Shown: positions 8,482 to 32,644, counted from the first letter of the stretch. The stretch: 64,000 nt of DNA from Alphaproteobacteria bacterium (GCA_965237415.1 CBDEFM010000001.1:128001-192000); one strand, 5' to 3'. The notes: generated by a model not told the origin, from the letters alone. Numbers and translations are program-made.

Positions 8482-9345
8482 AGTTGATCGCCTGGCGGAC
8501 GCGCACGTCGTCCATCGGCGCCATCTTCTGGTTCATCATCGCGAAGAAGACGCCGACGGCCGGGCGGCTGTAGGTCTTGTAGCCCGGCGTCGCCTCGATC
8601 TGGCGCAGCTTGTCGACCGGTACCGCGTCGGTACCCGAGATGCAGTCCACGTCACCGCTGAGCAGCGCGGCGAGGCGGGTCGCGTCCTCAGGTATTACCA
8701 CATACTCGACGCGCTCGAGGTAGGCGTTCCCCTCGTTGCTGTACCAGGGCGTGGCCCAGTTGTGCTCGTCGTTGCGCACGAGCTCGATGCCCTGGTCCGG
8801 GTCCCAGCGAACGAACTTGAACGGCCCGGTGCCGCTCGGGTTGCGGCCGAAGGCATCGCCCTGCGCCTCGACCGCGGCCTTACTGATGGGCGCGCAGTAG
8901 GAATAGCCGAGCCCCACCCAGAGCGGCACGAAGGGATCGCTGTAGTGATAGGCGATGGTCATGTCGTCGATCACCTCGGTGCCGGCGATCGGGCCCAGCA
9001 TCCACGAGGTGGGCGAGGCCGTGGTGTCGGCGAGGTGGCGTTCCACGGTCCAACGGACGACCTCGGCGTTGAACGGCGAGCCGTCGTGGAAGTTGACGCC
9101 CTCCCGCAGCGTGAAGGTGACCGTCTTGCCCTCGTTCGAGAACTCCCATCTGGTGGCGAGGCCCGGATAGACCGTGCCCTTCTCGTCGAGATAGACCAGC
9201 GAGTCGTAGACCTGCCACATGATCTCGTGGGCGACGAGCAGCGTGGTCTTCTGCGGGTCGAGGGTGTCGGACTCCTGCCCGCGGGCGATGCGCAGCGTGC
9301 CGCCCGGCTTGGCCGCGTGCGCGCGCGGCACTTGCGCGAGCCCGG
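8480..9345 (-). pseudogene. Family 5 peptide ABC substrate-binding protein, N-terminal half only
   Basis: [42 protein letters not shown] then homology breaks; in-frame stop upstream removes the signal peptide. Confidence 0.8.
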
Positions 9346-9374
9346 CAGATCACGACATTGATGAGATTTCGGAG

Positions 9375-10484
9375 CTAAACCTCCACCCGCACGGCACCCG
9401 CCGCGAGCGGCGCGAGCCGTGCCGGATCGAAGGGCTCGAGGTCCACGGTCTTGGCCGCTCCGTCGGCGATCAATTCTGCGACCGCCTCGCCCGTGGCCGG
9501 GCTGTTCAGCATTCCCCACACAGAATGACCCGTCGCCACATAGGCACCCTCTACGCCGGGGACGGCACCGATGAGCGGCAGCCCGTCTTCGGCGACGGGG
9601 CGATAGCAGGCCTGCTCGGCCAGCACCTCGGCACCGCCCAGAGCCGGCGCGAATTGCGCCGTCATGGCGCGGAGCCGGGCCGCGCCGCCCTCGTCCGGCA
9701 CCACGGCGGCGGGGTCCACCGGTAGCGGCGCCTCGCTGGAGAGGCCGCAGACGTAGGTCGTGCCGTCGGGCCGGGGAAACACTTCCGGCGAGGCGAGAGC
9801 GCCGCCCTCGGTCTCGAGCTCCACGAAGAGCGCGTGGGGCACCGGCGTCGGCGCATAGCGGAAGACCAGGCTGTGGCCCTTCAAGCCATAGACCGCCGGC
9901 AAGGGCAGCCATTGGCTGGCTAGAACCGACCATGGGCCCATGGCGATGACGACCGCATCGCCGGCGATCTCCTGCCCGTCCACCACGATGCCTTGCACGG
10001 CACCGTCGGCGCCTTGCACCAGGCCGGTGACGGTGCCGATCGTCAATCGCGCACCCGCGGCGAGCGCCGCCCGCATCATGGCACCGGTGAAGGCGGCGGG
10101 ATTTACCTGGGCCGTGGTCTCGGCGGTGCCAAGACGGGCATGCACCGCCGCGTCGCCCGCGAGCCAGTCGGGCGCCGCCAACTTGCGGTAGAAGCCCACG
10201 TCGCGGCGCGCGCTGGTCACGACGCCGAGCGTATCGAGCCGGCGGTATCCCCACTCGTCGTCGATCCTCTGAGCGAGCTCGGCGTGCAGGTCGAAGCTGC
10301 GCCGTGCCAACGCCTCGACGGGAGAGCCATCGCACCAGTCGAGCGCGAGGAACCCTCCCGACTTGCCCGAGGCCGCGTTGGCGATACCGGTGCGCTCGAT
10401 CACCACGGCCTCGATGCCGCGCTGGCTGAGGAAGTAGGCGATCGACGCGCCGATCACGCCGCCCCCGCAGATCAACACGCGCAT
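9375..10484 (-). CDS. FAD-dependent oxidoreductase, DAO family
   Basis: GGGVIG Rossmann motif, ASGKSGG, CYRP..DGLPLIG, ATGHSVWG. Confidence 0.88.
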   Translation of the reverse strand: MRVLICGGGVIGASIAYFLSQRGIEAVVIERTGIANAASGKSGGFLALDWCDGSPVEALARRSFDLHAELAQRIDDEWGYRRLDTLGVVTSARRDVGFYRKLAAPDWLAGDAAVHARLGTAETTAQVNPAAFTGAMMRAALAAGARLTIGTVTGLVQGADGAVQGIVVDGQEIAGDAVVIAMGPWSVLASQWLPLPAVYGLKGHSLVFRYAPTPVPHALFVELETEGGALASPEVFPRPDGTTYVCGLSSEAPLPVDPAAVVPDEGGAARLRAMTAQFAPALGGAEVLAEQACYRPVAEDGLPLIGAVPGVEGAYVATGHSVWGMLNSPATGEAVAELIADGAAKTVDLEPFDPARLAPLAAGAVRVEV

Positions 10485-10655
10485 GCGCGCCTCGCGACGG
10501 CCATTCTTGACCGCATAGTGATCGACATAGTGATCGACACGGCTTCTCCAATCGGGCCAGCGAAGCTCAGCCTAGCGCCGCCCCCGTCGCAGTTGCAAAG
10601 GCGGGGCCGTCCGCTACAGTCGGCGCCCTTTTGATCCACCGATGGACGGACGCTC

Positions 10656-11039
10656 ATGCTCAGCTGCGGGGAACTGATCGCACTCGTCGAGGACGCCTAC
10701 TTTTCCAATGTCGACAACAAGAACCTGGAGCCTGCGGTCGCTTGTTTCGCGGAGGATGCCGAACTCCGCATCCAATCTGCGCACGTGAGCCATGTCGGTC
10801 ACGATCAGATCAGGCGCATGTTCCGCGACTTCATGGGCACGACCAAGATCATCTATCACGGCGATTTCACCCACGTCGTCGACGTAGAGAACCAATGGAT
10901 CGCCTCGCAGTTCGTCGCCCGCAACGACTATGACGACGGCCGCCATGTGGAGATGCGCAACTGCAACTTCTTCCAGATCGTAGACGGCCGCTTCAAGCGC
11001 GTAACCATCTACATGACCGACGAGAACCCGCTGGTCTGA
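10656..11039 (+). CDS. SnoaL-like / NTF2-family protein
   Basis: 127 aa; YF..VD......CFAEDA, GHDQIRRMF, CNFF..VDGRF pattern. Confidence 0.75.
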   Translation: MLSCGELIALVEDAYFSNVDNKNLEPAVACFAEDAELRIQSAHVSHVGHDQIRRMFRDFMGTTKIIYHGDFTHVVDVENQWIASQFVARNDYDDGRHVEMRNCNFFQIVDGRFKRVTIYMTDENPLV

Positions 11040-11118
11040 CCGCGGTAATGCCGGGCGGCGCCTTGCGGCGTCCGGCGCTATTCGCCAGACTCGCGGCCGA
11101 AATCGCAAAGGGAAAGGC

Positions 11119-12129
11119 ATGAGCGCTCGCCCGCAGATCGACCCACCCTATCTGCTCTTCCTCGGCGATGCGCGGGACGACCTCGCCGCCAAGACCGCGC
11201 GCGGGGTGTTCGTCTTTCGGCCGGAGTGGTGCCTCGGCCAGCTCAGGCTGCCGGGGTGCAACGCCCGCCTCGACCTGCCCGAGATGACGTTGGAGGAGGC
11301 GGCGGCAAAGGGCGCAAAAAGCCTCATCGTCGGCGTCGCCAACGCTGGCGGGGTGGTTAGCGAAAGCTGGATCGCCACCCTGGTGGCGGCGCTGGAAACG
11401 GGCCTCGACGTGGCCAGCGGGCTTCATGTGCGCCTCAGCGACCTTCCGGCGGTGCGCGATGCTGCCGAGACGTACGGCAGGCATCTCTTCGACGTGCGCC
11501 ATCCGTCGCATGAATTCAAGGTGGGGACGGGCGTCCGCAGAGCCGGCAAGCGCCTGCTCACGGTGGGCACCGATGCCTCGGTCGGCAAGATGTACACTAC
11601 GCTCGCGCTGGAAGCCGAATGGCGCCGGCGGGGCGCCCCCTGCACCTTCCGCGCGACCGGGCAGACCGGCATCTTCGTCGCCGGCCGCGGGGTCTCGGTC
11701 GATGCGGTCGTAGCCGACTTCATCTCCGGTGCCACCGAGTGGCTCACGCCCGCGAACGACCCGAATCACTGGGACCTCGTCGAGGGGCAGGGCTCGCTCT
11801 TCCACCCCTCCTATGCCGGTGTGACGCTGGGTCTGATCCACGGCGCCCAGCCAGACGCGATCGTGGTCTGCCACGAGCCGACGCGGACCCATATGCGGGG
11901 CCTGCCGGGCTGGCCGCTGCCCGAGCTCGGCGCCTGTATCGAGGCCAACCTGCAGGCTGCGCGGCTCACCAATCCGGAAGTCGTCTGCGCCGGCATCTGC
12001 GTCAACACCGAGGCGCTCGGCGATGCCGAGGCGCAAGAGGTGCTAGCCGAGCTGGGCAAGGCGCACGGCCTCCCCTGCGTCGATCCCATCCGCACCGGCG
12101 CGGGCCCGATCGCCAACCGCGTGCTGTAA
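11119..12129 (+). CDS. dgcN: D-glutamate N-acetyltransferase DgcN (DUF1611)
   Basis: PYLLFLGDA...AAKTA.G..RPEW, VGTD.SVGKMYT, FRATGQTG, EGQGSLFHPSY; followed by dgcA. Confidence 0.88.
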   Translation: MSARPQIDPPYLLFLGDARDDLAAKTARGVFVFRPEWCLGQLRLPGCNARLDLPEMTLEEAAAKGAKSLIVGVANAGGVVSESWIATLVAALETGLDVASGLHVRLSDLPAVRDAAETYGRHLFDVRHPSHEFKVGTGVRRAGKRLLTVGTDASVGKMYTTLALEAEWRRRGAPCTFRATGQTGIFVAGRGVSVDAVVADFISGATEWLTPANDPNHWDLVEGQGSLFHPSYAGVTLGLIHGAQPDAIVVCHEPTRTHMRGLPGWPLPELGACIEANLQAARLTNPEVVCAGICVNTEALGDAEAQEVLAELGKAHGLPCVDPIRTGAGPIANRVL

Positions 12130-12141
12130 GGGGCCGGTTCC

Positions 12142-13125
12142 GTGAGGCGGCGTCTCACCGTGCGCCTCGAAACGTGGCCGCTCAAGGGCGCCTTCCGCAT
12201 CTCCCGCGGGTCGAAGACGGAGGCGCACGTCGTCGTCGCCGAGGTCGCCGACGGCCCCCACACGGGCCGTGGCGAGGCCGTCCCCTATCCCCGCTACGAC
12301 GAGACACCGGCGCGAACGCGCGCGGAGATCGAGGACGCGCGCGAGGCTGTGGAGGGCGGGCTTACCCGCGAAGGCCTGCTGGAGGCACTGCCGGCCGGCG
12401 CCGCTCGCAACGCGCTCGACTGCGCGCTCTGGGACCTGGAAGCGAAGCAGGCGGGCCGCCCGGCCTGGTCGCTGGCGGGGCTGAAGTCGCCAGAGCCCTG
12501 CGTCACCGCCGTCACACTCGGCCTCGATACACCCGAGAATATGGGTGAGGCTGCGGCCCGGCACGCGCACCTCCCTCTGCTCAAGCTCAAGGTCACCGGC
12601 GAGGGCGACCTCGCGCGCATCCAGGCGGTCCGCGCCAACGCGCCCGAGGCGAGGCTGATCGTGGATGCGAACGAGGGCTGGTCGCCGCCGATGCTGGATG
12701 AGCTGCTGCCGGCTCTCGCCGCGCTCGGAGTCGAGATGGTGGAACAGCCGCTGCCGGCGGCAGACGATGTGGCGCTCGAAGGCCGCAGCTTCGCGCTCCC
12801 GCTCTGTGCCGACGAGAGCTGCCACACACGCGCCGACCTGCCTGGGCTCGCCGGCCGCTACCCCATGGTCAACATCAAGCTGGACAAGACCGGGGGCCTC
12901 ACGGAGGCGCTCGCGCTCGCGGCCGAAGCGCAGGCCATGGGCTTTCGCATCATGGTGGGCAGCATGGTCGGCACCTCGCTCGCCATGGCGCCGGCTGCCC
13001 TGCTCGCCGGCTTCGCCGACTACGTCGACCTCGACGGCCCGCTGCTGCTGGCCCGCGACCGCTCGCCTGGGCTCAGCTACGACGGCGCGATGATGTCACC
13101 GCCGGAACCCGCGCTCTGGGGGTAG
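12142..13125 (+). CDS. dgcA: N-acetyl-D-glutamate racemase DgcA (enolase superfamily dipeptide epimerase)
   Basis: FRISRG.KT, LKLK, VDANEGW, VEQP, CADES, NIKLDKTGG, DLDGPLLL. Confidence 0.88.
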   Translation: MRRRLTVRLETWPLKGAFRISRGSKTEAHVVVAEVADGPHTGRGEAVPYPRYDETPARTRAEIEDAREAVEGGLTREGLLEALPAGAARNALDCALWDLEAKQAGRPAWSLAGLKSPEPCVTAVTLGLDTPENMGEAAARHAHLPLLKLKVTGEGDLARIQAVRANAPEARLIVDANEGWSPPMLDELLPALAALGVEMVEQPLPAADDVALEGRSFALPLCADESCHTRADLPGLAGRYPMVNIKLDKTGGLTEALALAAEAQAMGFRIMVGSMVGTSLAMAPAALLAGFADYVDLDGPLLLARDRSPGLSYDGAMMSPPEPALWG

Positions 13126-13137
13126 CCCGCTTTAGAT

Positions 13138-13176
13138 TCTTTACAAATTGAGTCTGGGTAAAGACTGAGATAGTGT
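13138..13176 (+). promoter_or_regulatory. Putative TA promoter with operator palindrome
   Basis: TCTTTAC-N13-GTAAAGA inverted repeat (13138-13164) overlapping TTGAGT-N17-TAGTGT. Confidence 0.45.
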
Positions 13177-13211
13177 TCGCCCGAATTGGACATGCCTGAA
13201 AGGACGTTGTC

Positions 13212-13439
13212 ATGCCGCGCGTGAGCGCCAAGCGCCAGATTACGCTGCCCATCGATCAGTGCAGAGAAGTCGGGATCGGGCCGGGGGACGAGTACCGCAG
13301 CTTCGTTGCCGATGGCCGTATCACCATCGTGCGAAAGACCGCTGGCGCGACCAAGGGATTCCTGCGTCATGTAGCCGGCGACCCCGCCGTTGGCGACGAA
13401 GAGTCCCTGCAGGACGCTCTGGACGAGTCGAAGCCTTGA
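13212..13439 (+). CDS. AbrB/MazE/SpoVT-family antitoxin
   Basis: VSAKRQITLP.......GIGPGD motif; stop overlaps toxin start. Confidence 0.85.
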   Translation: MPRVSAKRQITLPIDQCREVGIGPGDEYRSFVADGRITIVRKTAGATKGFLRHVAGDPAVGDEESLQDALDESKP

Positions 13440-13870
13440 TCGCCGTCGACACCAGTGTCTTGCTCCGGTATCTGCTGCACGACGATGAGGCCCAGGCAGC
13501 GCGGGCGGAGGCTGTTTTCGGTGCTGCCGAGACCGTTTTGATCACAGACGTTGTGCTTGCGGAAACCGTATGGACGCTCTCCGGCCGCAAGTACCGACTG
13601 GCCAAGGTCGAACTGGTGGCCGTCCTCGAACGGCTGTTCAGCGAGCCGAATGTCCGTTTCGAGGACGATCAGGCGGTTTGGCGCGCCCTGCAAGCGTACC
13701 GCAGCACCGCGCCGGCGGACGAGGCCGGGTCGGAGAAGGGTGCCGGCTTCGCCGATGCGCTGATCGTGTTCAAGGCGCAGCGTGCCGCATCGGACTCTGA
13801 CGAGACGCTGAACGGCGTCTACACCTTCGACGCGGCCATGGGGCGGCTGCCACACACCGTATCGCTCTGA
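13436..13870 (+). CDS. vapC: PIN-domain toxin, VapC family
   Basis: TTG start coupled to antitoxin stop; IAVDTSVLLRYL, VLAETVW, FADALI, TFD acidic PIN residues. Confidence 0.85.
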   Translation: MIAVDTSVLLRYLLHDDEAQAARAEAVFGAAETVLITDVVLAETVWTLSGRKYRLAKVELVAVLERLFSEPNVRFEDDQAVWRALQAYRSTAPADEAGSEKGAGFADALIVFKAQRAASDSDETLNGVYTFDAAMGRLPHTVSL

Positions 13871-14115
13871 AAGCAATCCGACGTAGGCTGCAGCCAGCCC
13901 GCCGCGCCAATCGGACGGTTCTCGACATCGGCATGGGGAGTCCACCACAAACTTTGCCGCCGGCCTCGCAACTGTGGCGGCGCGTATCGTAGGTGCGGGT
14001 CGCTACCATTTCCATTTGCCTGGGTCGCGGCCTTGTCTCCCTTCGTCCGATCTGAAATTCTGGCGGTGTGATAAGAAGGACCGGCTGGCACCGGACCGGC
14101 GCAGAGAGAGGGGCG

Positions 14116-14769
14116 ATGGGCCGTCTGCTGGAACTCGGGGAGCGGATGGAGCTCGTCTCCATGGACCCGCATTTCCACGACATCAGCATCTCCCTCTACC
14201 GCAGCAGCGGAGAGGGCGGCGCGTCGGGATTTCTCGCCCACAGCTACAGTGCGAAGGAGGGTGCTGAGGAGCGGCTTGGCTTCGTGATGCGGGCGATGGC
14301 GGTCATGGGCGGCATGGGGCCGGCGCCGGGTCAGCCCGATCGCCTGGCTTTCGCCTGCGGGGCCGCGCACAAGGCGGCGGTGAAGCGGCTCTTTCTCGAA
14401 GCCTGCAAGCGGGCGACGGGCGCCGAGGTTGCGGCGCAGCCCATGCGCGTCTACGACAAGAAGAACGATCTCACGATCGACGCGACAGCCGTCGGCGACG
14501 GGCGCTACCGGATCGCGGCCGCAGGCAGCGAGGGCAACGACAAGGCGGCGCAGCGCGTGGACGGCGTGACCAGGGGGTTGATCAAGCTCGCCGAGCTGGA
14601 GCCGGGTGCCGAGCCGGGCGAGGTTCGCTTCCCCTGCGGCCATGCCCATGACGCGCTGGTGGGCCTCCTGATCGGCCGGGCGCTCAACGTCCGTGCCGCC
14701 ATGCGCGAGGCGGAGGCGGCGGCGACGCGGGGCATTCTCGCCGCGCCGAGCGCGCAACAGCAGACCTGA
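14116..14769 (+). CDS. Hypothetical protein with two internal repeats each carrying FxCGxAH
   Basis: GAGGGG RBS; RLAFACGAAH and EVRFPCGHAH; first gene of the corrinoid operon. Confidence 0.75.
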   Translation: MGRLLELGERMELVSMDPHFHDISISLYRSSGEGGASGFLAHSYSAKEGAEERLGFVMRAMAVMGGMGPAPGQPDRLAFACGAAHKAAVKRLFLEACKRATGAEVAAQPMRVYDKKNDLTIDATAVGDGRYRIAAAGSEGNDKAAQRVDGVTRGLIKLAELEPGAEPGEVRFPCGHAHDALVGLLIGRALNVRAAMREAEAAATRGILAAPSAQQQT

Positions 14770-14787
14770 GGGTCGGGAGCGGAGACG

Positions 14788-15831
14788 ATGACGACAGTAC
14801 CCTCCATGACCAGCCGCGAGCGGGTGATGGCGGCGCTCCGGCGCGAGCCGGTGGACCGGACGCCCATATGCAACCCGACCTCGGTCGCGACCGTGGAGCT
14901 GATGGACCTGGTGGACGCCAACTTCCCGCTGGCGAACCGCGACCCCGAGCTGATGGCACGCCTCGCCGCGACCGGCCATACCGAATTGGGTTTCGACAGC
15001 ATCATGCCGGTCTTCTCGATCATCCAGGAATCGTCGGCGCTCGGCTGCAACATGCAGTGGGAGCAGAAGGACAATTGGCCGACGGTGCGCATGCGCGAGC
15101 CGATCTGGGAGGACGTGGACGACATCCGCATCCCCAACGACTTCCTCATGCACCCGGACATGCACTGCGTGATCGAGGCTATCCGCATCCTGCGGCGCGA
15201 GTTCGGCAACGAAGTGGCGATCATCGGCAAGACCATGGGGCCGTGGACGCTGGGCTATCACTGCTTCGGAGTGGAGCCCTTCCTGCTCATGTCGCTCGAC
15301 GATCCGGGCAAGACCAAGCTCGCGCTCGATCGCATGAAGGAGGCGACCATCCAGTTCGGCATGGCCCAGATCGAGGCCGGTGCCGATGCACTGACGGTCC
15401 CCGATCACGCCACCGGAGACCTGGTGAGCGCGGATTACTACAAGCGCTATCTCAAGGACCTGCACATCGAGTTCGTGGAGCGCCTGCCGGTGCCGCTCAT
15501 CCTCCATATCTGCGGACGCACGGTGGACCGCATGGGCTATATCGCCGAGACCGGGATCGCCGCGTTCCACTTCGATTCCAAGAACGATCCGGCCGAATCG
15601 ATGGCGGTGATGGACGACCGCGTGTCGCTGGTCGGCAACATCAACAATCCCGAGACGCTGTTCGCCAAGGGGCCGGAGGACGTGCGCAGGGAGGTCTATG
15701 CCAATCTCGACGCCGGCGTGCAGGCGGTGGGCCCGGAATGTGCCATCCCGCTCCAGACCTCGGTCGAGAACCTGCGCGAGATTCCGCTGGCGGTGCGCGA
15801 TTGGCACGCCGAGCGCGACCGCCCCCACTAA
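14788..15831 (+). CDS. MtaA/CmuA-family (UroD fold) Zn-dependent corrinoid methyltransferase
   Basis: MTSRERV start; VELMDLV..FP.AN.DPELMA.LA resembles archaeal MtaA; Zn ligands LHICG and GPEC. Confidence 0.85.
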   Translation: MTTVPSMTSRERVMAALRREPVDRTPICNPTSVATVELMDLVDANFPLANRDPELMARLAATGHTELGFDSIMPVFSIIQESSALGCNMQWEQKDNWPTVRMREPIWEDVDDIRIPNDFLMHPDMHCVIEAIRILRREFGNEVAIIGKTMGPWTLGYHCFGVEPFLLMSLDDPGKTKLALDRMKEATIQFGMAQIEAGADALTVPDHATGDLVSADYYKRYLKDLHIEFVERLPVPLILHICGRTVDRMGYIAETGIAAFHFDSKNDPAESMAVMDDRVSLVGNINNPETLFAKGPEDVRREVYANLDAGVQAVGPECAIPLQTSVENLREIPLAVRDWHAERDRPH

Positions 15832-15887
15832 GGCCCGCTAACGCCCGCCTCCCGTGACACCTCATCGCTCCCACCACTGAGTCCCCG

Positions 15888-16637
15888 ATGGCCGAGCTTT
15901 CCGACATCGCCAACGCGGTGATCCGCGACGAGATCGAGGAGTTCCTCGAGCGGCCCGACGAGATTGAGCGCAACGTCGCGCTATTCGCGCGGGTGCGGCC
16001 CGAGATGCAGGAGATCACCGCAGCCCTGATCGAGGGCGACAATCACACCGTGGACGCGCTGACCGTCAAGGCACTGGAGGAGGGCACGGAAGCGCTCGAG
16101 ATCATGGACGACGGGCTCATCGCCGGCATGGGCATCGTCGGCATCAAGTTCCGCGAGAACTTCATTTTCGTGCCCGAGGTGCTGGCCTGCGCGCGGGCGA
16201 TGAAGGCGGGCATGGCCCATATCGAGCCGATCCTGTCTGCCGCCGGCGTCGAGCCCATCGGCACCGTCATCATGGGCACGGTCAAGGGCGACCTGCACGA
16301 CATAGGCAAGAACCTCTGCATCATGATGCTGGGCGGCGCCGGCTTCGAGGTGGTGGACCTCGGCGTGGACACCTCCGAGGACGAGTTCATCGCAGCACTC
16401 GAGGAGCACAAGGCGCCGATCATGGGCATGTCGGCGTTGCTCACCACGACGATGCCGAACATGGGCAGGACCATCGAGGCGCTGATCGACGCCGACCTCC
16501 GCGACGACGTGATGGTGATGGTGGGCGGCGCCCCGGTGACCCAGGAGTTCGCCGACGACATGGGCGCCGACGGCTACGGCAAGGACGCGCTCTCCTGCGT
16601 GGCGCTCGCCAAGAAGCTCATGGAAGAGCGCGGATAG
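15888..16637 (+). CDS. Corrinoid (B12)-binding methyltransferase protein, MtaC/MttC-like
   Basis: Cap domain FVPEVL..ARAM; GTVKGDLHDIGKN (DxHxxG); MSALLTTTM; MVGGAPV. Confidence 0.92.
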   Translation: MAELSDIANAVIRDEIEEFLERPDEIERNVALFARVRPEMQEITAALIEGDNHTVDALTVKALEEGTEALEIMDDGLIAGMGIVGIKFRENFIFVPEVLACARAMKAGMAHIEPILSAAGVEPIGTVIMGTVKGDLHDIGKNLCIMMLGGAGFEVVDLGVDTSEDEFIAALEEHKAPIMGMSALLTTTMPNMGRTIEALIDADLRDDVMVMVGGAPVTQEFADDMGADGYGKDALSCVALAKKLMEERG

Positions 16638-16646
16638 GCCGGGCCG

Positions 16647-18641
16647 TTGCCGAAAATCAGCCAGCAGGACTATCAGCAGCGGCTCGACCGGCTCACCGAG
16701 ATTTTTTCGGACATCGTAAGCCACGCCGACGTGCAGGCGACGCAGCGCTGCCCCTACCGCGACGCGCGCGACCGCTGCACGGCCGCCTTCTCCTGCGGCA
16801 ACCAGATCGCCGCCGTGGAGAAGGGCGAGCCCGCGACCTGCGGCCATGACGGCACCTTCGACTACAGCCTCGCGTGGGAAACCGACCCCGCCACCCGCGA
16901 GCGCGCCCGTAAGCGCCTCGGTCTAATCAAGCAGAGCGCCGCGGCGCGCCGCGAAGGCGGAGCGCTGCCGGTCGGGCCGGGCACCGTCTCCCACGACGGC
17001 AAGATTCAGCCGCTCGCCATCGGTATGACGCTCTTCGACTGCGCCGACGAGCTTGCCGTCGAGGTGCCGACATCGTGCCTCCGCAACGGCCGCTGCCACG
17101 AGTGCGTGGTCGAGGTGACCGGTGGCAAGGATGCGCTCTGCGCACGCACCGAGGCGGAGAGCTTTCTGCGGCCTCCCTACCGCCTCGCCTGCCAGGCGGT
17201 GGTCGAGCGGGACGATATCGATGTCACCTTCGCGCCGCTTCGCCGCCGCCCGCGCATTCTGGTCCGCGCCCATGCCGATGCAGCCGGTGCGCCTGAGACC
17301 CTCGACCCTCTCGTTACGCGGCGGGGCGCCGACGTGCTCTACGACGGCCGCGTGGTAGACCGCTACCGGGGGCACATGCTCGGGCTCGCGGTCGATCTCG
17401 GCACCACGACGGTGGTCCTCGACTTCGTCGATCTGGAGACCGGGAAGAGCGTGCACAGCGCCGCCTTCGAGAACCCGCAGGCCTTCGGCGGCAGCGACGT
17501 GATGCACCGCATCTCCTTCGACCGCGACGACAAGGCGGGCGAGCTGCAGAAGGCCGCCGCGACCGCCATCAGCCGCGCCATTATGGACGGCTGCGCGCGG
17601 CTGGGGCTGGGCCGCGAGACAATCTACGAGATCGTGGTCGCGGCCAACCCGACCATGCGCGATATCCTGTTCAAGCTCGACGTGCAAGGGATCGGCCAGA
17701 AGCCTTACAAGTCTTCCATCGAGCACGCCTTCCTCGCGGGCGAGCGCGCCGACACGGCGCTCACGGCGCTGGCCCGGCGCCTGGGTCTCCGCGCCAACCG
17801 CGAGGCGCGGGTGTATGGGCTCCCGCTGATCGCGAGCCACGTGGGCGGCGATGCGGCGGCTGCACTGGTGGCGCTGGAACAGGGGTTCGCGGACGCAGAG
17901 ACGGCGATGCTCGTGGACATGGGCACCAATACCGAGGTCGTGCTCAAGCACCGGGGCCGCCTGCTCGCCGCCTCCTGCCCGGCGGGGCCTGCGTTCGAGG
18001 GGGGACTGGTGCGCTACGGCATGCCGGCCTGCGACGGCGCCATCGAGACGGTGCGCCTCGGCGCGGACGGCGAGGCAATCTACGAGACCATCGGCGGGGC
18101 AGCGCCAGTGGGCCTCTGCGGCTCCGGCCTGATCGACCTGCTGGCGGAGCTTCGGCGGGGTGAATGGCTCACGGCCAAGGGCGTCTTCGCCGCCGACCGC
18201 AAGCAGATGGAAATGACGGTGGTGCCGGCGCACGGGATCACCTTCTCGAAGGAAGACGCCAGCAATCTCGGCCAGGCCAAGGCCGCCAACTATTGCGGCC
18301 AGTACATCGTCATGCGCGCGCTCGGCGTCGATCCCGCCGGGATCGAGAGGCTCTATCTCGCCGGCGGCTTCGCCAACTATGTGAATGTGCGCAACGCCGT
18401 CTCCATCGGCCTGCTGGCGCCGGTGCCGGAAGAACGCATCGTCAAGGCCGGCAACGCGGCGGCGCAGGGCGCCCGGGCGATCCTGCTGTCCGCCACCCGG
18501 CGCCGGGCGCTGGAGCGCGAGGTCCAGGCCATCGAGCATATCGAGCTCGAGACCACGCCCGATTTCTTCGATCTCTTCGTCGATGGCTGCCAGTTCAAGC
18601 CGATGCCATCGCACCTCGGGCCAGCAGGGACCGCCGCATGA
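16647..18641 (+). CDS. ASKHA-domain reductive activator of corrinoid enzymes (RACE/RamA-like) with 2Fe-2S domain and an extra Cys-rich N-terminus
   Basis: SCLRNGRCHEC...RLACQ; AVDLGTTT; NPQ.FGG.DV; VDMGTNTE; AGPAFEG; CGSG; AGGF. Confidence 0.88.
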   Translation: MPKISQQDYQQRLDRLTEIFSDIVSHADVQATQRCPYRDARDRCTAAFSCGNQIAAVEKGEPATCGHDGTFDYSLAWETDPATRERARKRLGLIKQSAAARREGGALPVGPGTVSHDGKIQPLAIGMTLFDCADELAVEVPTSCLRNGRCHECVVEVTGGKDALCARTEAESFLRPPYRLACQAVVERDDIDVTFAPLRRRPRILVRAHADAAGAPETLDPLVTRRGADVLYDGRVVDRYRGHMLGLAVDLGTTTVVLDFVDLETGKSVHSAAFENPQAFGGSDVMHRISFDRDDKAGELQKAAATAISRAIMDGCARLGLGRETIYEIVVAANPTMRDILFKLDVQGIGQKPYKSSIEHAFLAGERADTALTALARRLGLRANREARVYGLPLIASHVGGDAAAALVALEQGFADAETAMLVDMGTNTEVVLKHRGRLLAASCPAGPAFEGGLVRYGMPACDGAIETVRLGADGEAIYETIGGAAPVGLCGSGLIDLLAELRRGEWLTAKGVFAADRKQMEMTVVPAHGITFSKEDASNLGQAKAANYCGQYIVMRALGVDPAGIERLYLAGGFANYVNVRNAVSIGLLAPVPEERIVKAGNAAAQGARAILLSATRRRALEREVQAIEHIELETTPDFFDLFVDGCQFKPMPSHLGPAGTAA

Positions 18642-19717
18642 CCGTCTCGCCGACCACCGGGCCGTCTCTCACCGTCATCGGCGAGAACATCCACTGCACG
18701 CGCGTCGCGCTGCGCAAGGGCAAGCGCATCGCCGAGCGCGATGGCGCCGAGACGATCCTCTACCGCACGGCCGAGGGGGAGGAGCGCGCGCTCCCGGTCA
18801 CTGAGGAGTCCAAGCGAACCAAGGACTACGAGGAGGGGCGGGTCAAGCACGTCCAGGTCGCGATCGAGACCGCGATGGAGACGGCGGCGAGCGATCCGCC
18901 GGGCGATCCGGCCGAGGGCCTGCGCTATATCGAGGCTCTGGTGCGCCATCAGGAGCTGGCGGGCGCCGCATTCCTCGACCTCAACGTGGACGAGATCTCG
19001 CCCAAGCTCGCGGTGCAGACCGGCGCCATGACCTGGCTCGCCGCGACTGTCCAGGGGATGACGGCGCTGCCGATCTCCGTCGATTCCTCCAGCGTCGACG
19101 TGATTCGCGCGGGGCTGGAGGCGATTGCGCCGGCGCAGGCGCGCCCGATGCTCAACTCCGCCTCGCTGGAGCGGCTGGAGGCCCTCGACCTCGCACGGGC
19201 GCACGACTGCCGCGTGGTGGTGACCGCCGCCGGCGAGCGGGGCATGCCGAATGGCGCCGAGGAGCGGGTGGCGAACGCCTCGCGGATGGTCGAGGCTGCG
19301 CTCTCCAAGGGCTTTGCCATCGGCGATCTCTACATCGACCCGCTGGTCTTCCCCATCTCGGTCGATTCCCGCTTCGGCCACCACTGCCTCGATGCGATCC
19401 GGAGCTTACGCGCCCGCTTCGGCGCGGGCATCCACATCACCGGCGGCATGAGCAACGTCTCCTTCGGCTTGCCGGCCCGCAAGCTGCTCAACGAGCTGTT
19501 CGTCCTGCTCGCGGTGGAAGCCGGCGCCGACGGCGGCATCCTGGACCCGGTGGCGAGCCCGCCGGAGGCGATCCTCGCCATCGACCGCGAAGACCCCCGC
19601 TACCAGCTCGCCGAGGACGTGATGCTGGGGCGCGACGAGCACTGCAGGGCCTATATCCGCGCCTGGCGGAAGGGCCGGCTCGCGGCCGGTCGCGCCGACA
19701 GGCGCGCGGCCGATTGA
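18638..19717 (+). CDS. Pterin-binding methyltetrahydrofolate:corrinoid methyltransferase (AcsE-like)
   Basis: VIGENIH, LDLNVD, ISVDSS, MLNSAS, YIDPLV, GGMSNVSFGLP; ATGA overlap with upstream gene. Confidence 0.85.
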   Translation: MTVSPTTGPSLTVIGENIHCTRVALRKGKRIAERDGAETILYRTAEGEERALPVTEESKRTKDYEEGRVKHVQVAIETAMETAASDPPGDPAEGLRYIEALVRHQELAGAAFLDLNVDEISPKLAVQTGAMTWLAATVQGMTALPISVDSSSVDVIRAGLEAIAPAQARPMLNSASLERLEALDLARAHDCRVVVTAAGERGMPNGAEERVANASRMVEAALSKGFAIGDLYIDPLVFPISVDSRFGHHCLDAIRSLRARFGAGIHITGGMSNVSFGLPARKLLNELFVLLAVEAGADGGILDPVASPPEAILAIDREDPRYQLAEDVMLGRDEHCRAYIRAWRKGRLAAGRADRRAAD

Positions 19718-19736
19718 GGGAGAGGAAACCCGCGCC

Positions 19737-20138
19737 ATGACCGAGACCGACCGGCCACCGCAAGACGAGCCTGCGCTCCGCACGCTGGCCATGCCCGCCG
19801 ACGCCAACCCCAACGGCGACATCTTCGGCGGCTGGGTGCTGGCGCAGATGGACCTCGCCGGCGGCGTTGTGGCGGCGCGGCGCGCCGGCGGGCGCATGGT
19901 TACGGTTGCGGTCGAGGCGATGCGCTTCCACGCGCCGATCGCCATCGGCGACCTTGTGACCTGCTACGCCCGGGTAACGAAGACCGGGCGGACCTCGATC
20001 ACCGTCGCCATCGAGACCTGGGCGCGCCGGCGGCGCGGTCCTAAGGAGGTGAGGGTGACCGAGGGCACCTTCATCTATGTCGCGATCGACGAAGAGGGCC
20101 GCCCCCGCCCCCTCCCCGACGAGACCGCGGAGGGCTGA
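19737..20138 (+). CDS. Acyl-CoA thioesterase (YciA-like hotdog fold)
   Basis: AMPADANPNGDIFGGWVLAQMD; TGRTSI. Confidence 0.9.
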   Translation: MTETDRPPQDEPALRTLAMPADANPNGDIFGGWVLAQMDLAGGVVAARRAGGRMVTVAVEAMRFHAPIAIGDLVTCYARVTKTGRTSITVAIETWARRRRGPKEVRVTEGTFIYVAIDEEGRPRPLPDETAEG

Positions 20139-20171
20139 CGGCGGAGCTTGCTGTCGCCGCAATCCTTCGCG

Positions 20172-21617
20172 TCAGGAGGGGATGCTGGCGGCGGGATCGT
20201 GGGCCGGGTCGAGGCCGCGAATGACGACGCAGGGCATGGGCGCAGCGCGAAGCACCTTGCACGCCCGCTTGGCGTCGCTCTTGTAGAGCCCCAGGAATCG
20301 CGCCCGATAGAGGGTGCCGGGGCCCACCGCACTGGATTCGAGCATCGCTGCTGCGCCGTTGAGGGAGGGCGCGCGTGCCGTCGCCCGGCGCATGGCGATT
20401 TGAGCTGCCGTGATCGACTCGTAGGCGCCCACCTGAATGCCCCAGGGGCGGGCGGTCACCGAGTCTGCCTCGAACGTGTTGGCCGGCGATTTGGTCCCGG
20501 ACGCAACCGTCGCCCTCGCGACCGTCGGCGCCACAACCCCGGGCTTGGAGGGCGGAGGCGGCGGGCCCGAAGCGACATCGGCCTGCACCGCCTCGGCACT
20601 CTCGATCGGCTCGGCCGGAGGCGCCGCGGCACCTTCGGCCAGTTCGGGCGGCTGGGCCGCCGCAACCAGGATTGCTGCAGGCTTGAAGCGCGCGGTCGGC
20701 GCGGCCAAGCCGGAGCCTGCCGGTGGCCGCGGAATGCCCGCATAACGGACGCGGCCACGCGCGGCGTCGCGCTCGGCGATCCGCGTGAAGCCGAGGTCGA
20801 GAAGATTGGCCATGTGACTGTTGCGCGAGCTCGCGGTCTTGCCGCCAAAGACCACCGCGATGACGCGCCGGCTGTCGCGCTCCGCCGACGCCACGAGGTT
20901 GAACCCCGAGGCGCGAATGTAGCCGGTCTTTATGCCGTCCATGCCGCGGTAACGACCCAGCAGCCTGTTCGGCGTGCGATGCTCCCTCCCCCTGTAGCCG
21001 AAGCGCTCGTCGTCGAAATAGTGGTAGCGGTGCGGGAAATCCCGCATCAGGGCGCGCGCGAGCTGCGCCATGTCCCGCGCCGTGCTGCGCTGCTTCCGGT
21101 TCGGCAAGCCGGACGCATTGCGGAAGGTGGTTCGAGTCATACCCAACGTCCGGGCCTTGCTGGTCATCTTCTGGGCAAACTTGACCTCCGTTCCGCCCAA
21201 CGCCTCGGCGACCACCACGGCGATATCGTTGGCCGACTTGACCACCAACGCCCTGATCGCGTCCTCGACGCGGATCGTCGAGCCGGCGCTAGGCCCGAGC
21301 TTCGACGGCGGCTGCCCCGCCGCCCGCTTGGAGACCTTCAGCTTGGAGTCGAGGCTGAGCCGCCCCTGGTCGATCGCCTCGAAGAACAAGTAGAGGGTCA
21401 TCATCTTGGTCAGCGACGCCGGATACCTGCGTATATCGGCGTTGCGGGAGCGCAAGACCTCGCCTGTTTCGGCGTCGATGACGATGGACGCGTAACGCGC
21501 CTGCGCCGTCTCGGCGGCGAAGACTTGAGACAATGCCAGGACGCAGAGTGAGAGCACGAGGGCGAGCACGATGGAGCCCGGCCGTGAGATTCTTCTTCTT
21601 TTTCGCCGCGCTTCCAC
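20172..21617 (-). CDS. D-alanyl-D-alanine carboxypeptidase (S11) with C-terminal SPOR domain
   Basis: ASLTK (SxxK), SAN, KTG motifs; WGIQVGAY SPOR. Confidence 0.9.
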   Translation of the reverse strand: MEARRKRRRISRPGSIVLALVLSLCVLALSQVFAAETAQARYASIVIDAETGEVLRSRNADIRRYPASLTKMMTLYLFFEAIDQGRLSLDSKLKVSKRAAGQPPSKLGPSAGSTIRVEDAIRALVVKSANDIAVVVAEALGGTEVKFAQKMTSKARTLGMTRTTFRNASGLPNRKQRSTARDMAQLARALMRDFPHRYHYFDDERFGYRGREHRTPNRLLGRYRGMDGIKTGYIRASGFNLVASAERDSRRVIAVVFGGKTASSRNSHMANLLDLGFTRIAERDAARGRVRYAGIPRPPAGSGLAAPTARFKPAAILVAAAQPPELAEGAAAPPAEPIESAEAVQADVASGPPPPPSKPGVVAPTVARATVASGTKSPANTFEADSVTARPWGIQVGAYESITAAQIAMRRATARAPSLNGAAAMLESSAVGPGTLYRARFLGLYKSDAKRACKVLRAAPMPCVVIRGLDPAHDPAASIPS

Positions 21618-21752
21618 GTCCGCCCCGCCCCGCCGCCGACTCGATACGGCGTTCCATATGGGTTCAAAGCGGGGCGCCCGTCAAGAAAAGCCTGTGGAAG
21701 ATGGTTTGGAAGTCGTTGATTCGGCGCCATCTCTGGCCAAGATCGGCCACTC

Positions 21753-23147
21753 TCAGAAGTCGGGCGGATCGACGCCACTCGACCGGAGTTGCACGACGAG
21801 ATCGTCCTTCAAGCGCCGCAAGGCGGCATCGTCCGCAGCCTCGCAACGAGCCACCAACATGGGCTGGGTGTTGGATGCGCGCAGCAGCCACCAGCCGTCC
21901 GCGCTTTCGGCCCTGACACCGTCGATGGCGGTGAACGCCGCACCGGCGGCGCTGAGCCGCGCGCGGACCTCGTCGGCGACCTGGAACTTACGCTCATCCG
22001 GGCAGGGGAAGCGGACCTCGGGCGTGCTCACCTGGCGCGGCAGGTCGGCCCTGAGCGCTGCGAGCGAGCGCCCCTCGCCGGCGATCAGCCGCAGCAGCCG
22101 GAGGGCGGCATAGAGCGCATCGTCGAATCCGTAGTAGCGATCGGCGAAGAAGATGTGGCCGCTCATCTCGCCTGCGAGCGGTGCGCCCACCTCCGCCATC
22201 TTCGCCTTGATCGGCGCGTGGCCCGATCGCCACATCAGGGGCGTGCCGCCGAGACGGGCGATTTCGTCGAACAGGACCCGGCTCGCCTTGACGTCGCCGA
22301 TGACGGTGGCACCCGGGCGTTCGCGCAGCACCTCGCGGGCGAGCAAGGCCACGAGCTGATCGCCCCAGAGAATGTCGCCGGCTCCGTCCACGACTCCGAT
22401 ACGGTCGCCATCGCCATCGAAGGCGATGCCGAGATCGCAGCGCTCGGCCCGCACGGTATCGATCAATTGAGACAGGTTCTCCGCCACCGTGGGATCCGGG
22501 TGGTGGGCGGGAAAAGTCCCGTCGACCGCAGCGTTCAGCAGGATATGACGACCCGGGAGACCGTCCGTGAGCGCGCCGAGCACCGCGCCAGCGGCGCCGT
22601 TGCCGGCATCCCACGCCACGGTGAACGATCCCTCGCCTGCCTCGACGAGAAGGCGCGCGACATACGGCCCGGCAAGATCGGCTCCCGTCGCCCTGCCCGT
22701 GCTGCCCGCCAAGGCGTCGCCGGCGGCGACGGTCTGCGCCAGTTCCTCGATGTCCGGACCGAAGAACGGACGGCCGCCCAGCACCATCTTGACGCCGTTG
22801 TAGGCCGGTGGGTTGTGCGAACCCGTGATCATCATGCCGCCGTCGCTCTGACGCTCGTGGACGGCGAAGTAGAGCATCGGGGTCGGGCCAACGCCGATAC
22901 GGAGCACGTCGGCGCCGGCGGCGGTGAGTCCCTCGATCAGATGGGCCTCCAAGTCCGGCGAGCTCAGCCTGCCGTCGCGACCCACACAGATGAGCGGCGG
23001 CCGACCGGTGGCTGACCGGCGCCGCGCGATGGTGGCGAAGCCCCGGCCGATGGCGGCCATGTCGGCCCCGGTCAGCGTCTCGCCGACGATCCCCCTGATG
23101 TCGTACGCGCCGAGGATCGCCGGGTTGAGCGCATGACCTGCGCTCAT
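21753..23147 (-). CDS. Phosphomannomutase/phosphoglucomutase
   Basis: YDIRG, ITGSHNP, AFDGDGDR, GEMSGH. Confidence 0.95.
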   Translation of the reverse strand: MSAGHALNPAILGAYDIRGIVGETLTGADMAAIGRGFATIARRRSATGRPPLICVGRDGRLSSPDLEAHLIEGLTAAGADVLRIGVGPTPMLYFAVHERQSDGGMMITGSHNPPAYNGVKMVLGGRPFFGPDIEELAQTVAAGDALAGSTGRATGADLAGPYVARLLVEAGEGSFTVAWDAGNGAAGAVLGALTDGLPGRHILLNAAVDGTFPAHHPDPTVAENLSQLIDTVRAERCDLGIAFDGDGDRIGVVDGAGDILWGDQLVALLAREVLRERPGATVIGDVKASRVLFDEIARLGGTPLMWRSGHAPIKAKMAEVGAPLAGEMSGHIFFADRYYGFDDALYAALRLLRLIAGEGRSLAALRADLPRQVSTPEVRFPCPDERKFQVADEVRARLSAAGAAFTAIDGVRAESADGWWLLRASNTQPMLVARCEAADDAALRRLKDDLVVQLRSSGVDPPDF

Positions 23148-29112: not shown

Positions 29113-29250
29113 GTCCTCTCCTCCGGCGCTCGGCGCCTTCGGTCGCCTCAACGCAGCCTAAGGAGCCAAGCGCCCCACCCTGCCCTCTAAATTGGGAGAT
29201 TATATACGAAGGTCACAACGACTTGGACGCAGTCAGTGACGTGCACGGCG

Positions 29251-29280
29251 TTGACCGAGGACCACCCGGGGCGATACACT
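29251..29280 (+). promoter_or_regulatory. Sigma70-like promoter, probably leaderless
   Basis: TTGACC-N18-TACACT-N7-ATG(29288). Confidence 0.6.
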
Positions 29281-29287
29281 ATCCTCT

Positions 29288-29521
29288 ATGACCGAGGAAG
29301 AGCGGAAGATATTCAACGGCCTCGTCGCCGAAGTTTTGGTCCTGAAACTCGCTTTACTCGATCTGTACCGACACGTTCACCGAGACGGAGCCCGGGACCG
29401 ACTGGCCGCACTTTTTGCAGATGCCTTCCCCGATGCGTCGGGGGATCCAGAAGAGATCGAAAAACTCACTGCGTATTCGGGAGCAGCCAAAAGACTCTTG
29501 GATGACATCCGGGACTACTGA
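29288..29521 (+). CDS. Small helical hypothetical protein (IS cargo)
   Basis: 77-aa ORF directly behind the promoter module; no SD. Confidence 0.6.
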   Translation: MTEEERKIFNGLVAEVLVLKLALLDLYRHVHRDGARDRLAALFADAFPDASGDPEEIEKLTAYSGAAKRLLDDIRDY

Positions 29522-29577
29522 TTCTCGTTCCATGTCTGGTACTTAGGAAGAACGCCGCAGAATATAATTGGCCGGGG

Positions 29578-29808
29578 TCACGTCTCCGGGTTCTCTGGTA
29601 TGGGCAATCTTTCTCGTAGAATGTCGGCTATTGAGTCGATTCCGAGGTAAAGAAGATCGAGACGTTGATTCACTCCGTCGAAATGGTCATCAAGATCCTT
29701 TCTCAGGGATTCTATCTGTTTGACGACCGCGTCCATTCTGACCTCAAGGCGTCCCATTCGCTCTTCGAGTTTACTTAGACGTTCAGCGGGGGGTTTCTCG
29801 TCGCTCAT
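29578..29808 (-). CDS. Small coiled-coil hypothetical protein (IS cargo)
   Basis: Heptad pattern LSKLEERMGRLEVRMDAV; own promoter module. Confidence 0.65.
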   Translation of the reverse strand: MSDEKPPAERLSKLEERMGRLEVRMDAVVKQIESLRKDLDDHFDGVNQRLDLLYLGIDSIADILRERLPIPENPET

Positions 29809-29815
29809 GCGGGAG

Positions 29816-29845
29816 AGTGTATCTCCCGGAGTGAATCGGGGTCAA
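29816..29845 (-). promoter_or_regulatory. Sigma70-like promoter, probably leaderless
   Basis: TTGACC-N18-TACACT-N7-ATG(29808) on minus strand. Confidence 0.6.
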
Positions 29846-30027
29846 GCCTCCGGATCCCTAACCACCTTTACCGGTCGCAGCACCGCCCGCGCCAACTCTT
29901 CCGGAGTGGCGTCGATACTTACATCCTCCCGTAATTCGGCTCGGGTCGGCTGGTAGGTATGGGGTTTGACGCGGATCGTGGGCCGCGTCGACTTCCGCTT
30001 CGGCTGGGGCTTCGGTCGACTCGTCAC
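29842..30027 (-). CDS. Small hypothetical protein (IS1595-associated)
   Basis: 61 aa; basic N-terminus, YQPTRAELREDVSIDATPEELARAVL; same strand as transposase. Confidence 0.55.
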   Translation of the reverse strand: MTSRPKPQPKRKSTRPTIRVKPHTYQPTRAELREDVSIDATPEELARAVLRPVKVVRDPEA

Positions 30028-30115
30028 CCCGGCACGGTGCCATCGGTTCGTTTCTCAGTCCACTCCTTTCGTGACCCCTTGACCCCCGATCCCCGATCCG
30101 CCTACGCTCGTCCCC

Positions 30116-30367: not shown

Positions 30368-30416
30368 AACGGCCCGGCACCAGCGCCGGGACCGGGACGG
30401 CTCAGCGGGGTGTGAG

Positions 30417-30929: not shown

Positions 30930-30958
30930 ACCAAACCATCAAAACGGGAGGGTGTGTG

Positions 30959-31378: not shown

Positions 31379-31411
31379 CTTCGGGGTAAACGGCGTTCTC
31401 TTCCATAACAA

Positions 31412-32389: not shown

Positions 32390-32519
32390 CTCCGATCCTC
32401 CTGAATTGTGATCGGAGTGTAACACATCAGGAGTTGACCGTCAAGAGGAACTTTCTTCTAAAACAAATACTTAGGGACGGAAATCGGTGGCGATAAATAG
32501 GTGATTGCTAAATACTCAC

Positions 32520-32642: not shown

Positions 32643-32644
32643 CA

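Follow-up and report, generated by a model that had tools for sequence, protein, structure and literature searches.

The window analysed here is a stretch of 64,000 nucleotides (nt) from the genome of an Alphaproteobacteria bacterium (GCA_965237415.1, CBDEFM010000001.1:128001-192000), and the system in question is a group of five closely packed genes on its plus strand (14116-19717), which would together form a corrinoid-dependent methyl-transfer system. The original prediction, made from the sequence alone, had placed five tightly spaced genes here, all on the plus strand, and this has been confirmed, as the coordinates agree with the list of open reading frames (ORFs) and with the gene picture based on the GC content at third codon positions (GC3); the intergenic gaps are 18, 56, 9 and -4 nt. 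The domain identities it had proposed, namely an MtaA-like enzyme with HxC...C residues, a corrinoid protein with a DxHxxG motif, an activator and a pterin methyltransferase, are also in agreement with the Pfam and NCBIfam scores and with the motifs. The first gene belongs to no known family and is called unk.

14116-14769 (+): unk, 217 amino acids (aa), no known family; two FxCGxxH motifs; no Pfam or NCBIfam match
14788-15831 (+): MtaA/CmuA-family zinc methyltransferase of the uroporphyrinogen decarboxylase (URO-D) fold, 347 aa; URO-D 222 bits, TIGR01463 252.5 bits
15888-16637 (+): corrinoid (B12) carrier with cap and Rossmann B12-binding domain; PF02607 75.7 bits, PF02310 94.3 bits; DLHDIG
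16647-18641 (+): RACo/RamA-type ATP-dependent reductive activase with N-terminal 2Fe-2S ferredoxin; RACo_C_ter 221.5, Raco_middle 127.6, Fer2 25.7 bits
18638-19717 (+): pterin-binding methyltransferase (MeTr/AcsE/MetH-module-like) for methyl-tetrahydrofolate (methyl-THF) and corrinoid; Pterin_bind 69.4 bits

The unk/MtaA-like pair and the conservation of the cluster

A scan for unk with one genome per prokaryote species gave at least 52 loci, and all counts out of 52 given below are among the loci listed. Their hosts belong to Alphaproteobacteria, Rhodospirillales, a betaproteobacterium, Poribacteria, Latescibacterota, Spirochaetia, Acidobacteriota/Bryobacterales/Terriglobia, Gemmatimonadaceae and Dehalococcoidia; the listed relatives that have a record title are metagenome-assembled genomes, and no cultured host was identified. 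The MtaA-like gene lies immediately 3' of unk in 50 of the 52 loci, and the remaining two end at contig edges. The corrinoid protein is found in 45 (five of the seven misses are contig ends, and the poribacterial loci L031 and L032 are genuinely without it), RACo in 43, and the pterin methyltransferase in 31 within the fetched flank as well as in 6 of 6 Poribacteria chromosomes just past the 8-kb flank. Operon conservation across genomes had been proposed as a check on the original prediction, and this recurrence of the gene set is well above chance. The order unk-mtaA is constant while the other genes are shuffled, for instance to unk-mtaA-pterin methyltransferase-corrinoid protein-RACo in L049-L051, and in L031 and L032 the unk-mtaA pair stands alone amid unrelated genes, with no corrinoid protein or RACo in the 8-kb flanks. 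When 401 genomes of the window's class were sampled evenly, unk and the MtaA-like gene were found in the identical 8 genomes and were adjacent in each; moreover, both are carried by all three of the other genomes sampled from the family of the window. From this invariant order and identical distribution it is concluded that unk and the MtaA-like gene are an obligate pair, which is the strongest new result of our study.

The window was compared with loci L010-L046 and L052, mostly from other phyla, and the identities were found to be 74-86% for the MtaA-like protein, 72-83% for the corrinoid protein, 52-71% for RACo, 49-66% for the pterin methyltransferase and 45-57% for unk. The MtaA-like and corrinoid proteins thus appear to be under very strong constraint. 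A quick maximum-likelihood tree of these two proteins was built from 45 rows, leaving out eight loci that are truncated or without the corrinoid protein (L006, L017, L020, L031, L032, L039, L046 and L047). Alphaproteobacteria, Poribacteria and Spirochaetia formed supported clades with very short internal branches between them, whereas Latescibacterota and Acidobacteriota were split. The tree pattern and the identities together point to a long residence of the cluster in several lineages and to some transfer between them, and the description of the enzyme as archaeal in the original prediction is misleading in view of these largely phylum-coherent bacterial clades. Words of the stretch were also found in 20 listed runs from 10 studies, and in four metatranscriptome libraries (three studies) contigs of at least 90% likeness cover parts of all five genes. 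These contigs demonstrate presence and give a weak hint of expression, as DNA carry-over is possible, and the uncovered parts carry no meaning.

The MtaA-like protein passes the TIGR01463 mtaA_cmuA model (252.5 bits against a curated cut-off of 235.4) and PRK06252 (251.1 bits, cut-off 244), and it lies under the equivalogs of MtaA (NF040654, 230.9 bits, cut-off 400) and MtbA (NF041608, 200.7 bits, cut-off 600). It aligns over its full length with Methanosarcina mazei MtaA (4AY7, E 1e-53), and its LHICG and PECA stretches face LHICG and PGCG of that structure in the alignment. The HxC...C residues H240, C242 and C318, which we take to be the zinc ligands on the basis of the MtaA literature, do not vary among 24 orthologues, which represent 8 or more phylum-level groups and have a mean column identity of 80%. 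A phmmer search of the PDB at E<=0.001 recovered MtaA and true uroporphyrinogen decarboxylases only; no O-demethylase or Cdm structure was among the matches, the presence of CdmB in that copy of the PDB being not established. A tblastn search of 72,556 plasmid records gave nothing above 30% identity and no cmuA annotation, most of the annotated matches carrying hemE names and two the name 'uroporphyrinogen decarboxylase family protein'. The sole other URO-D match in the window genome (371 bits) was taken as HemE. Judged from its NCBIfam scores, its match in the PDB and the tree described in the literature, the protein is presumed to be a methyl-corrinoid:thiol or methyl-sulfur:corrinoid methyltransferase. 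Kountz & Balskus (PMC10418091) place the SCMT-like proteins as S/Se-methyltransferases separate from the O-demethylases.

The partner protein unk has no match in Pfam or NCBIfam at E<=0.01, and no family recurred when 24 members were compared with Pfam at E<=10. A profile search of the PDB sequences gave chance-level matches only (E>1), and a search of 1.84 billion representatives with the unk profile recovered its own family only. In the 90%-cluster database unk has 651 relatives, and at 50% identity the family comes to 326 representatives; among the 120 listed of the 651 no precomputed Pfam domain was found, and the few names given to listed relatives are 'hypothetical protein'. Complete members are mostly about 210 aa long, and in the members checked no additional domain was convincing. 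A 345-aa protein (P0210), in which the N-terminal part of unk is followed by the N-terminal part of a URO-D protein, was rejected as a true fusion and taken as a read-through of adjacent genes. Internally, unk is a tandem duplication of a module of about 100 aa, each half of which closes with one FxCGxxH motif (FACGAAH and FPCGHAH); hhalign of the two halves gave a probability of 97.3% and an E value of 2.5e-11 over 59 columns. Residues D17, F20, H21, D22, R53, D114, Y131, R147 and N191 are unchanged in all 24 aligned sequences; the first four fall in an N-terminal MDPHFHD motif, and a conserved RGxLxAPSxQ stretch forms the C-terminal tail. These conserved residues look like a ligand- or metal-binding site. 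The four Cys/His residues of the FxCGxxH motifs are jointly missing in two acidobacterial members (L029 and L045), a pattern that would be expected of one dispensable metal site.

The three remaining proteins are of more familiar type. The corrinoid protein has B12-binding_2 and B12-binding domains, with DLHDIG as its DxHxxG His-on motif, and stays under the cut-offs of MtgC_2 (202.5 bits against 370) and pyl_corrinoid (181.8 bits against 215). The AcsV score of RACo is 267.8 bits, under the cut-off of 800; its TTG start codon is tentative, and in five loci its ferredoxin part is a separate small ORF. The pterin gene runs from 18164 to 19717 according to the ORF lister, and comparison of the orthologue starts points to the ATG at 18638, which overlaps the RACo stop, as the most likely true start. 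Its product scores 187.4 bits with PRK07535 (cut-off 259) and matches positions 373-613 of metH.

Genomic surroundings of the cluster

Two further ORFs adjoin the cluster in the window.

13259-13870 (+): PIN-domain ORF, immediately 5' of the cluster; retained in close alphaproteobacterial relatives
19737-20138 (+): YciA-type acyl-CoA thioesterase, 19 nt 3' of the pterin gene; 4HBT 74.5 bits, YciA 149.9 bits (cut-off 162)

The start coordinate of the PIN-domain ORF is tentative, as it failed the GC3 filter when called from the first start codon. The thioesterase gene is found downstream in only seven of the 52 loci, all of them within the nine closest alphaproteobacterial loci (L001-L005, L007 and L009), and it is probably a lineage-specific neighbour outside the core cluster. 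One tRNA was counted across the whole window, and a promoter and terminator scan gave nothing exceeding shuffle expectation. Farther downstream, the window has a low-GC island at 29200-34900 (0.56-0.62 against about 0.68 elsewhere), which holds an IS1595-family transposase gene (31412-32425, minus strand) and ORFs without Pfam match. A second low-GC island (42500-45650, 0.55-0.60) carries an AAA_21/OLD-like TOPRIM nuclease-type gene (43432-44568, minus strand), which may be a defence gene and sits beside methylmalonyl-CoA mutase, and a related fragment (44667-45398, minus strand).

The cluster of the window has no MttB/MtaB-type gene and no homocysteine domain, just as had been predicted. The prediction had also set the cluster apart from methionine synthase, and this part does not hold in other phyla, where in Poribacteria and Latescibacterota a methylene-THF reductase and a homocysteine S-methyltransferase-domain gene join the cluster. 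The YitJ-like methylene-THF reductase is in the cluster at 16 of the 52 loci; the homocysteine-domain gene lies within the flanks at five, and just outside them in six further Poribacteria clusters. Together with the lack of full-length MetH in 21 of 31 host genomes (among the matches listed), these genes make the corrinoid/pterin/RACo core resemble the split-MetH/Mtg hub published for roseobacters (PMC12478193). A GntR/FCD regulator occurs in the fetched flanks of 24 of the 52 loci, and in the 17 loci of the main ORF cluster it stands directly 5' on the opposite strand. A riboswitch search found none in window positions 9000-22000 (E<=1) and none in nine diverse loci of the cluster; taken with the frequent regulator, this would fit regulation by a small-molecule substrate better than feedback by S-adenosylmethionine (SAM) or B12. 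A PhyH-family gene, presumably of the Fe/2-oxoglutarate dioxygenase family, lies inside the cluster in eight loci (Poribacteria), and an APH-type kinase adjoins it in eight. The kinase was considered as a sign of methionine salvage and rejected, as it scores no more than 46-51 bits for similarity to methylthioribose (MTR) kinase, where the cut-off is 275. In L049 (6463-7950, plus strand), L050 and L051, all from Acidobacteriota, the start of unk is overlapped by the gene of a 495-aa protein whose C-terminal domain is PF13769 'Virulence_fact', and methylene-THF reductase is the last gene of the cluster; no mention of PF13769 was found in the literature searched. A TnpB/IS605 OrfB-type gene (L025:12567-13703, minus strand) lies between the RACo and PhyH genes of one Poribacteria cluster.

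The genes for methionine synthesis were examined in the hosts, metH and metE having been named in the original prediction as a point to check. Full-length MetH is present in 10 of the 31 host genomes, and in the Poribacteria genomes it is represented by a stand-alone reactivation domain only (both among the matches listed). Genes like core-MetE (Meth_synt_2 of about 350 aa) occur in 27 of the 31, one to eleven in each. Genome G026 is one of the 27, and its two metH-model matches are the cluster's own corrinoid protein and pterin methyltransferase (among the matches listed). The per-genome counts of homocysteine-domain genes in the hosts are lower bounds, i.e. at least the number given. The cluster was rejected as a sole methionine synthase, as no host was found without core-MetE-like, MetH or homocysteine-domain genes in a search that did not include Meth_synt_1. 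The window genome itself has an apparent metH remnant outside the window (G000:C2:~3799262-3800616; locus L063:7260-9149), in which the homocysteine domain is truncated (profile 1-196 of 283) and directly followed by the B12 cap and B12 domains; a search of it showed no pterin domain, and of the reactivation domain positions 2-54 only. Outside the cluster the same genome has three stand-alone homocysteine-domain (PF02574) genes, three core-MetE-like genes and one methylene-THF reductase. The aerobic nature of the host, as predicted earlier, is reasonable, since a COX1 haem-copper oxidase is present. Biosynthesis of coenzyme M (CoM) had likewise been named for checking, and no ComA-type gene was matched in the window genome, this being the one route checked; CoM as acceptor is therefore unlikely.

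A second corrinoid system was found at G000:C2:1729595-1735785 (locus L062) of the window genome, which comprises an MttB-family gene (773 bits), a RACo with linker domain and genes for a pterin-binding protein and for a corrinoid protein. The MttB gene is the single full MttB (PF06253) gene of this genome, and the identities to the proteins of the window are 52% for the corrinoid protein, 28% for RACo and 31% for the pterin methyltransferase. By its domain composition the second system resembles an MtgBCD/RamA glycine-betaine-type set. Regarding selenium, 18 of the 32 host genomes searched have SelD, and it was not found in the other 14, among them the window genome (96% complete) and all ten alphaproteobacterial hosts tested. 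In G015 (C1:684131-685789), and likewise in G020, G021, G022, G024 and G025 (all Poribacteria), a selD with an in-frame TGA adjoins a core-MetE-like gene.

Possible functions of the cluster

We tentatively favour, with a probability just short of even, the reading that the five genes form a self-contained, modular corrinoid methyl-transfer hub which demethylates a methylated sulfur compound and feeds folate and methionine. The corrinoid protein would be the shuttle, going from Co(I) to methyl-Co(III) and back. The pterin-binding enzyme would couple it to the THF pool (CH3-THF and THF), and the MtaA-type zinc enzyme with its obligate partner unk would couple it to a sulfur-centred substrate, whereas RACo would use ATP and an electron to rescue the Co(II) that arises by oxidation in an aerobic cell. 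The methyl donor may be a sulfonium or a methyl-thioether, e.g. dimethylsulfoniopropionate (DMSP), methylmercaptopropionate (MMPA), methanethiol or dimethyl sulfide (DMS). Its methyl group would pass to THF for oxidation via methylene-THF reductase, and also to homocysteine via the homocysteine-domain proteins, whose genes belong to the cluster in other phyla and lie outside it in the window genome. We infer that the substrate is a sulfur compound, in which direction the methyl group moves and that unk associates physically with the MtaA-like protein. Demethylation is favoured because the enzyme falls in the SCMT branch handling thiols and thioethers, because the GntR/FCD regulator is frequent and no riboswitch was found in the loci tested, and because methylene-THF reductase occurs in the cluster, like metF2 beside mtgD in Ruegeria (PMC12478193). 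The same source provides the precedent for corrinoid hubs in aerobic Alphaproteobacteria.

Several points weigh against this reading. Homology leaves the function of unk unsupported, and no substrate transporter or sulfur-compound gene conserved beside the cluster was found in the neighbourhoods of the loci. Next to the copy in the window there is neither a regulator nor a methylene-THF reductase or homocysteine-domain gene. The MtaA-like and corrinoid proteins are conserved at a housekeeping level, which would be odd for a peripheral catabolic enzyme and which a biosynthetic role would also fit. Further, methyl transfer from methyl-tetrahydromethanopterin (methyl-H4MPT) to CoM amounts to about -30 kJ/mol, so that transfer from a plain thioether to THF would be uphill; this would favour either a sulfonium donor or the reverse direction, from CH3-THF to a thiol.

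The reverse, biosynthetic direction is a strong rival, which we consider rather unlikely on present evidence. Here the methyl group would move from CH3-THF to the corrinoid protein and then, via the MtaA-like protein and unk, to a thiol; in the sharpest form this thiol is homocysteine and the cluster a non-canonical methionine synthase reactivated by RACo, and otherwise it may be sulfide, methanethiol or another thiol. MtaA proper runs this way, the zinc ligands are intact, and the thermodynamics given above favour the making of a thioether. The housekeeping-level conservation in mostly phylum-coherent clades, the methylene-THF reductase in 16 of the 52 clusters, the absence of full-length MetH from 21 of the 31 hosts, the metH remnant without pterin domain in the window genome and the confinement of the G026 metH-model matches to cluster genes (the MetH counts again among the matches listed) are all consistent with it. 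On the other hand, the fullest clusters already hold a classical homocysteine-binding gene, next to which a second homocysteine methyltransferase would be redundant, and the window genome has its three stand-alone homocysteine-domain genes and a second corrinoid/pterin/RACo set. Core-MetE-like genes are present in 27 of the 31 hosts, including G026, and no genome was found to need the cluster as its methionine synthase; a GntR/FCD regulator without a SAM or B12 riboswitch is moreover atypical for methionine biosynthesis.

Two other substrate classes are less likely than this. Improbable, in our judgement, is a split cmu- or cdm-like methyl-halide dehalogenase or an O-demethylase, which would pass a methyl group from CH3Cl, CH3Br or a methoxy-aromatic compound through the corrinoid protein to THF. 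TIGR01463 is named after MtaA and CmuA jointly, and CmuA combines MtaA-like and corrinoid domains, with CmuB being pterin-binding. The layout of components equals that of the O-demethylase and Cdm systems (PMC13222342). However, the zinc thiolate-type ligands are intact and invariant here, whereas CdmB needs no zinc according to the same source, and the SCMT-like proteins have about 17% identity with OdmB/VdmB (Kountz & Balskus, PMC10418091). The PDB search at E<=0.001 also gave nothing from the O-demethylase/Cdm side, with the limit on CdmB noted above, and the plasmid search gave no cmuA-annotated match or any above 30% identity. Very improbable is the salvage of methyl-selenium, from dimethylselenide or methylselenol to selenide, as proposed for type 1 mlp clusters and for the sdm genes of Methanococcus voltae. 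The SCMT-like ClMlp2 methylates selenide from methylcobalamin (PMC10418091) and SelD is present in 18 of the 32 hosts, but it was not found in the other 14, including the window genome and all ten alphaproteobacterial hosts tested, and a single MtaA-like gene with a THF methyltransferase is unlike the type 1 mlp clusters.

It is unlikely, though conceivable, that unk is a new metal-binding subunit which provides the substrate for the MtaA-type enzyme, or that unk acts as the first methyltransferase itself, so that the pair would be the missing aerobic corrinoid-dependent methyl-sulfur demethylase. If so, it could carry out, for example, a second demethylation in the DMSP route (MMPA to 3-mercaptopropionate) or transfer the methyl group of methanethiol or DMS to folate, feeding the folate one-carbon pool and methionine in several phyla, including the Poribacteria, which are sponge associates. 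If the cluster is instead a methionine synthase variant, the amino-acid pathway predictions for uncultured host groups would need correcting. The unk/MtaA-like pair is conserved at a near-housekeeping level over at least seven phylum-level groups, and many of these genomes were found without full-length MetH. The identity of the substrate would give a function to a family of 326 representatives, and could expose a new route of methyl-sulfur or methyl-group salvage.

Comparison with known systems

No description of this gene combination was found in open full texts, supplements and subscription journals being outside the scope of the search. The cluster is not an orthologue set of the cmu, mec or type 1 mlp clusters, from which it differs in fusion, gene count or the THF methyltransferase, and in the case of mec by the gene composition of the cassette. 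It shares with MtaA, MtbA and MtsA of methanogens the fold, the family (TIGR01463), the HxC...C ligands and the full-length alignment with MtaA, whereas it lies below the equivalog cut-offs and has a bacterial host with an oxidase, no ComA found and THF chemistry. The methanogen systems are not known to have a partner protein like unk.

In CmuA an MtaA-like and a corrinoid domain are fused in one polypeptide, and CmuB binds a pterin. The methyltransferase and the corrinoid protein are separate genes in the window, as at each of the 45 loci with both, and being unfused the cluster is not a cmu system. The mec cassette for dichloromethane has two URO-D-family methyltransferases (MecE and MecC), MecB and further mec genes, and the single URO-D-family gene found here sets the cluster apart from this composition. 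CmuA is described as methyltransferase I (MTI) plus corrinoid protein and CmuB as methyltransferase II (MTII) in PMC13222342. Together with CdmBCA, MtvABC and OdmABCD, these systems show the same succession of a first methyltransferase, a corrinoid protein and a THF methyltransferase with an activating enzyme. The first methyltransferases of Cdm and Odm, on the other hand, belong to a distant URO-D branch, CdmB is without zinc, and an unk-like partner appears in none of them as described in PMC13222342.

The type 1 mlp clusters also combine an SCMT-like methyltransferase and a corrinoid protein with a Ram/RACE activase in non-methanogens, with a proposed S/Se-methyl chemistry. As described in PMC10418091, they have at least two Mlp paralogues (Mlp2 and Mlp3) and no THF methyltransferase, and they are found in obligate anaerobes only, mostly Firmicutes. 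Our cluster combines a single MtaA-like gene with a THF methyltransferase and unk, and its hosts carry oxidase or dioxygenase genes; on account of the single Mlp-like gene, the THF methyltransferase and the aerobic hosts it does not count among the type 1 mlp clusters.

The nearest known system, by comparison of gene sets, is the aerobic split-MetH/Mtg hub. Corrinoid hubs were long held to be a trait of anaerobes, and have recently been shown to carry major glycine-betaine and methionine fluxes in aerobic marine bacteria (PMC12478193, as for the following points). In Ruegeria pomeroyi, genetics has shown that the corrinoid protein MtgC and the bidirectional pterin enzyme MtgD serve both methionine synthesis (MtgE) and glycine-betaine demethylation (MtgB), aided by RamA, and metF2 lies beside mtgD; the split MetH of Phaeobacter inhibens is credited there to Price et al. 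2018. Our cluster is likewise from an aerobic Alphaproteobacterium, and its predicted products include a separate corrinoid protein, pterin methyltransferase and RamA/RACo, with one corrinoid protein as the predicted hub and with a paralogous methylene-THF reductase and a homocysteine-domain protein associated at some loci. Its genes, in contrast, stand in one operon, its corrinoid protein is under the MtgC cut-offs, no DUF1638 was seen in the cluster, and the window genome has a separate MttB-type set. The substrate module is an MtaA/URO-D-fold zinc enzyme with unk in place of the MttB-family MtgB, so that the cluster may be the counterpart of the roseobacter MtgB/C/D/E-RamA hub in which the MtaA-like protein and unk replace the MttB-family module. 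Hence, the cluster would provide a second, unstudied substrate module for the aerobic hub, tying a methanogen-type zinc S-methyltransferase to an unannotated family, and this MtaA-like/unk module and its substrate are what is new in comparison with the known systems.

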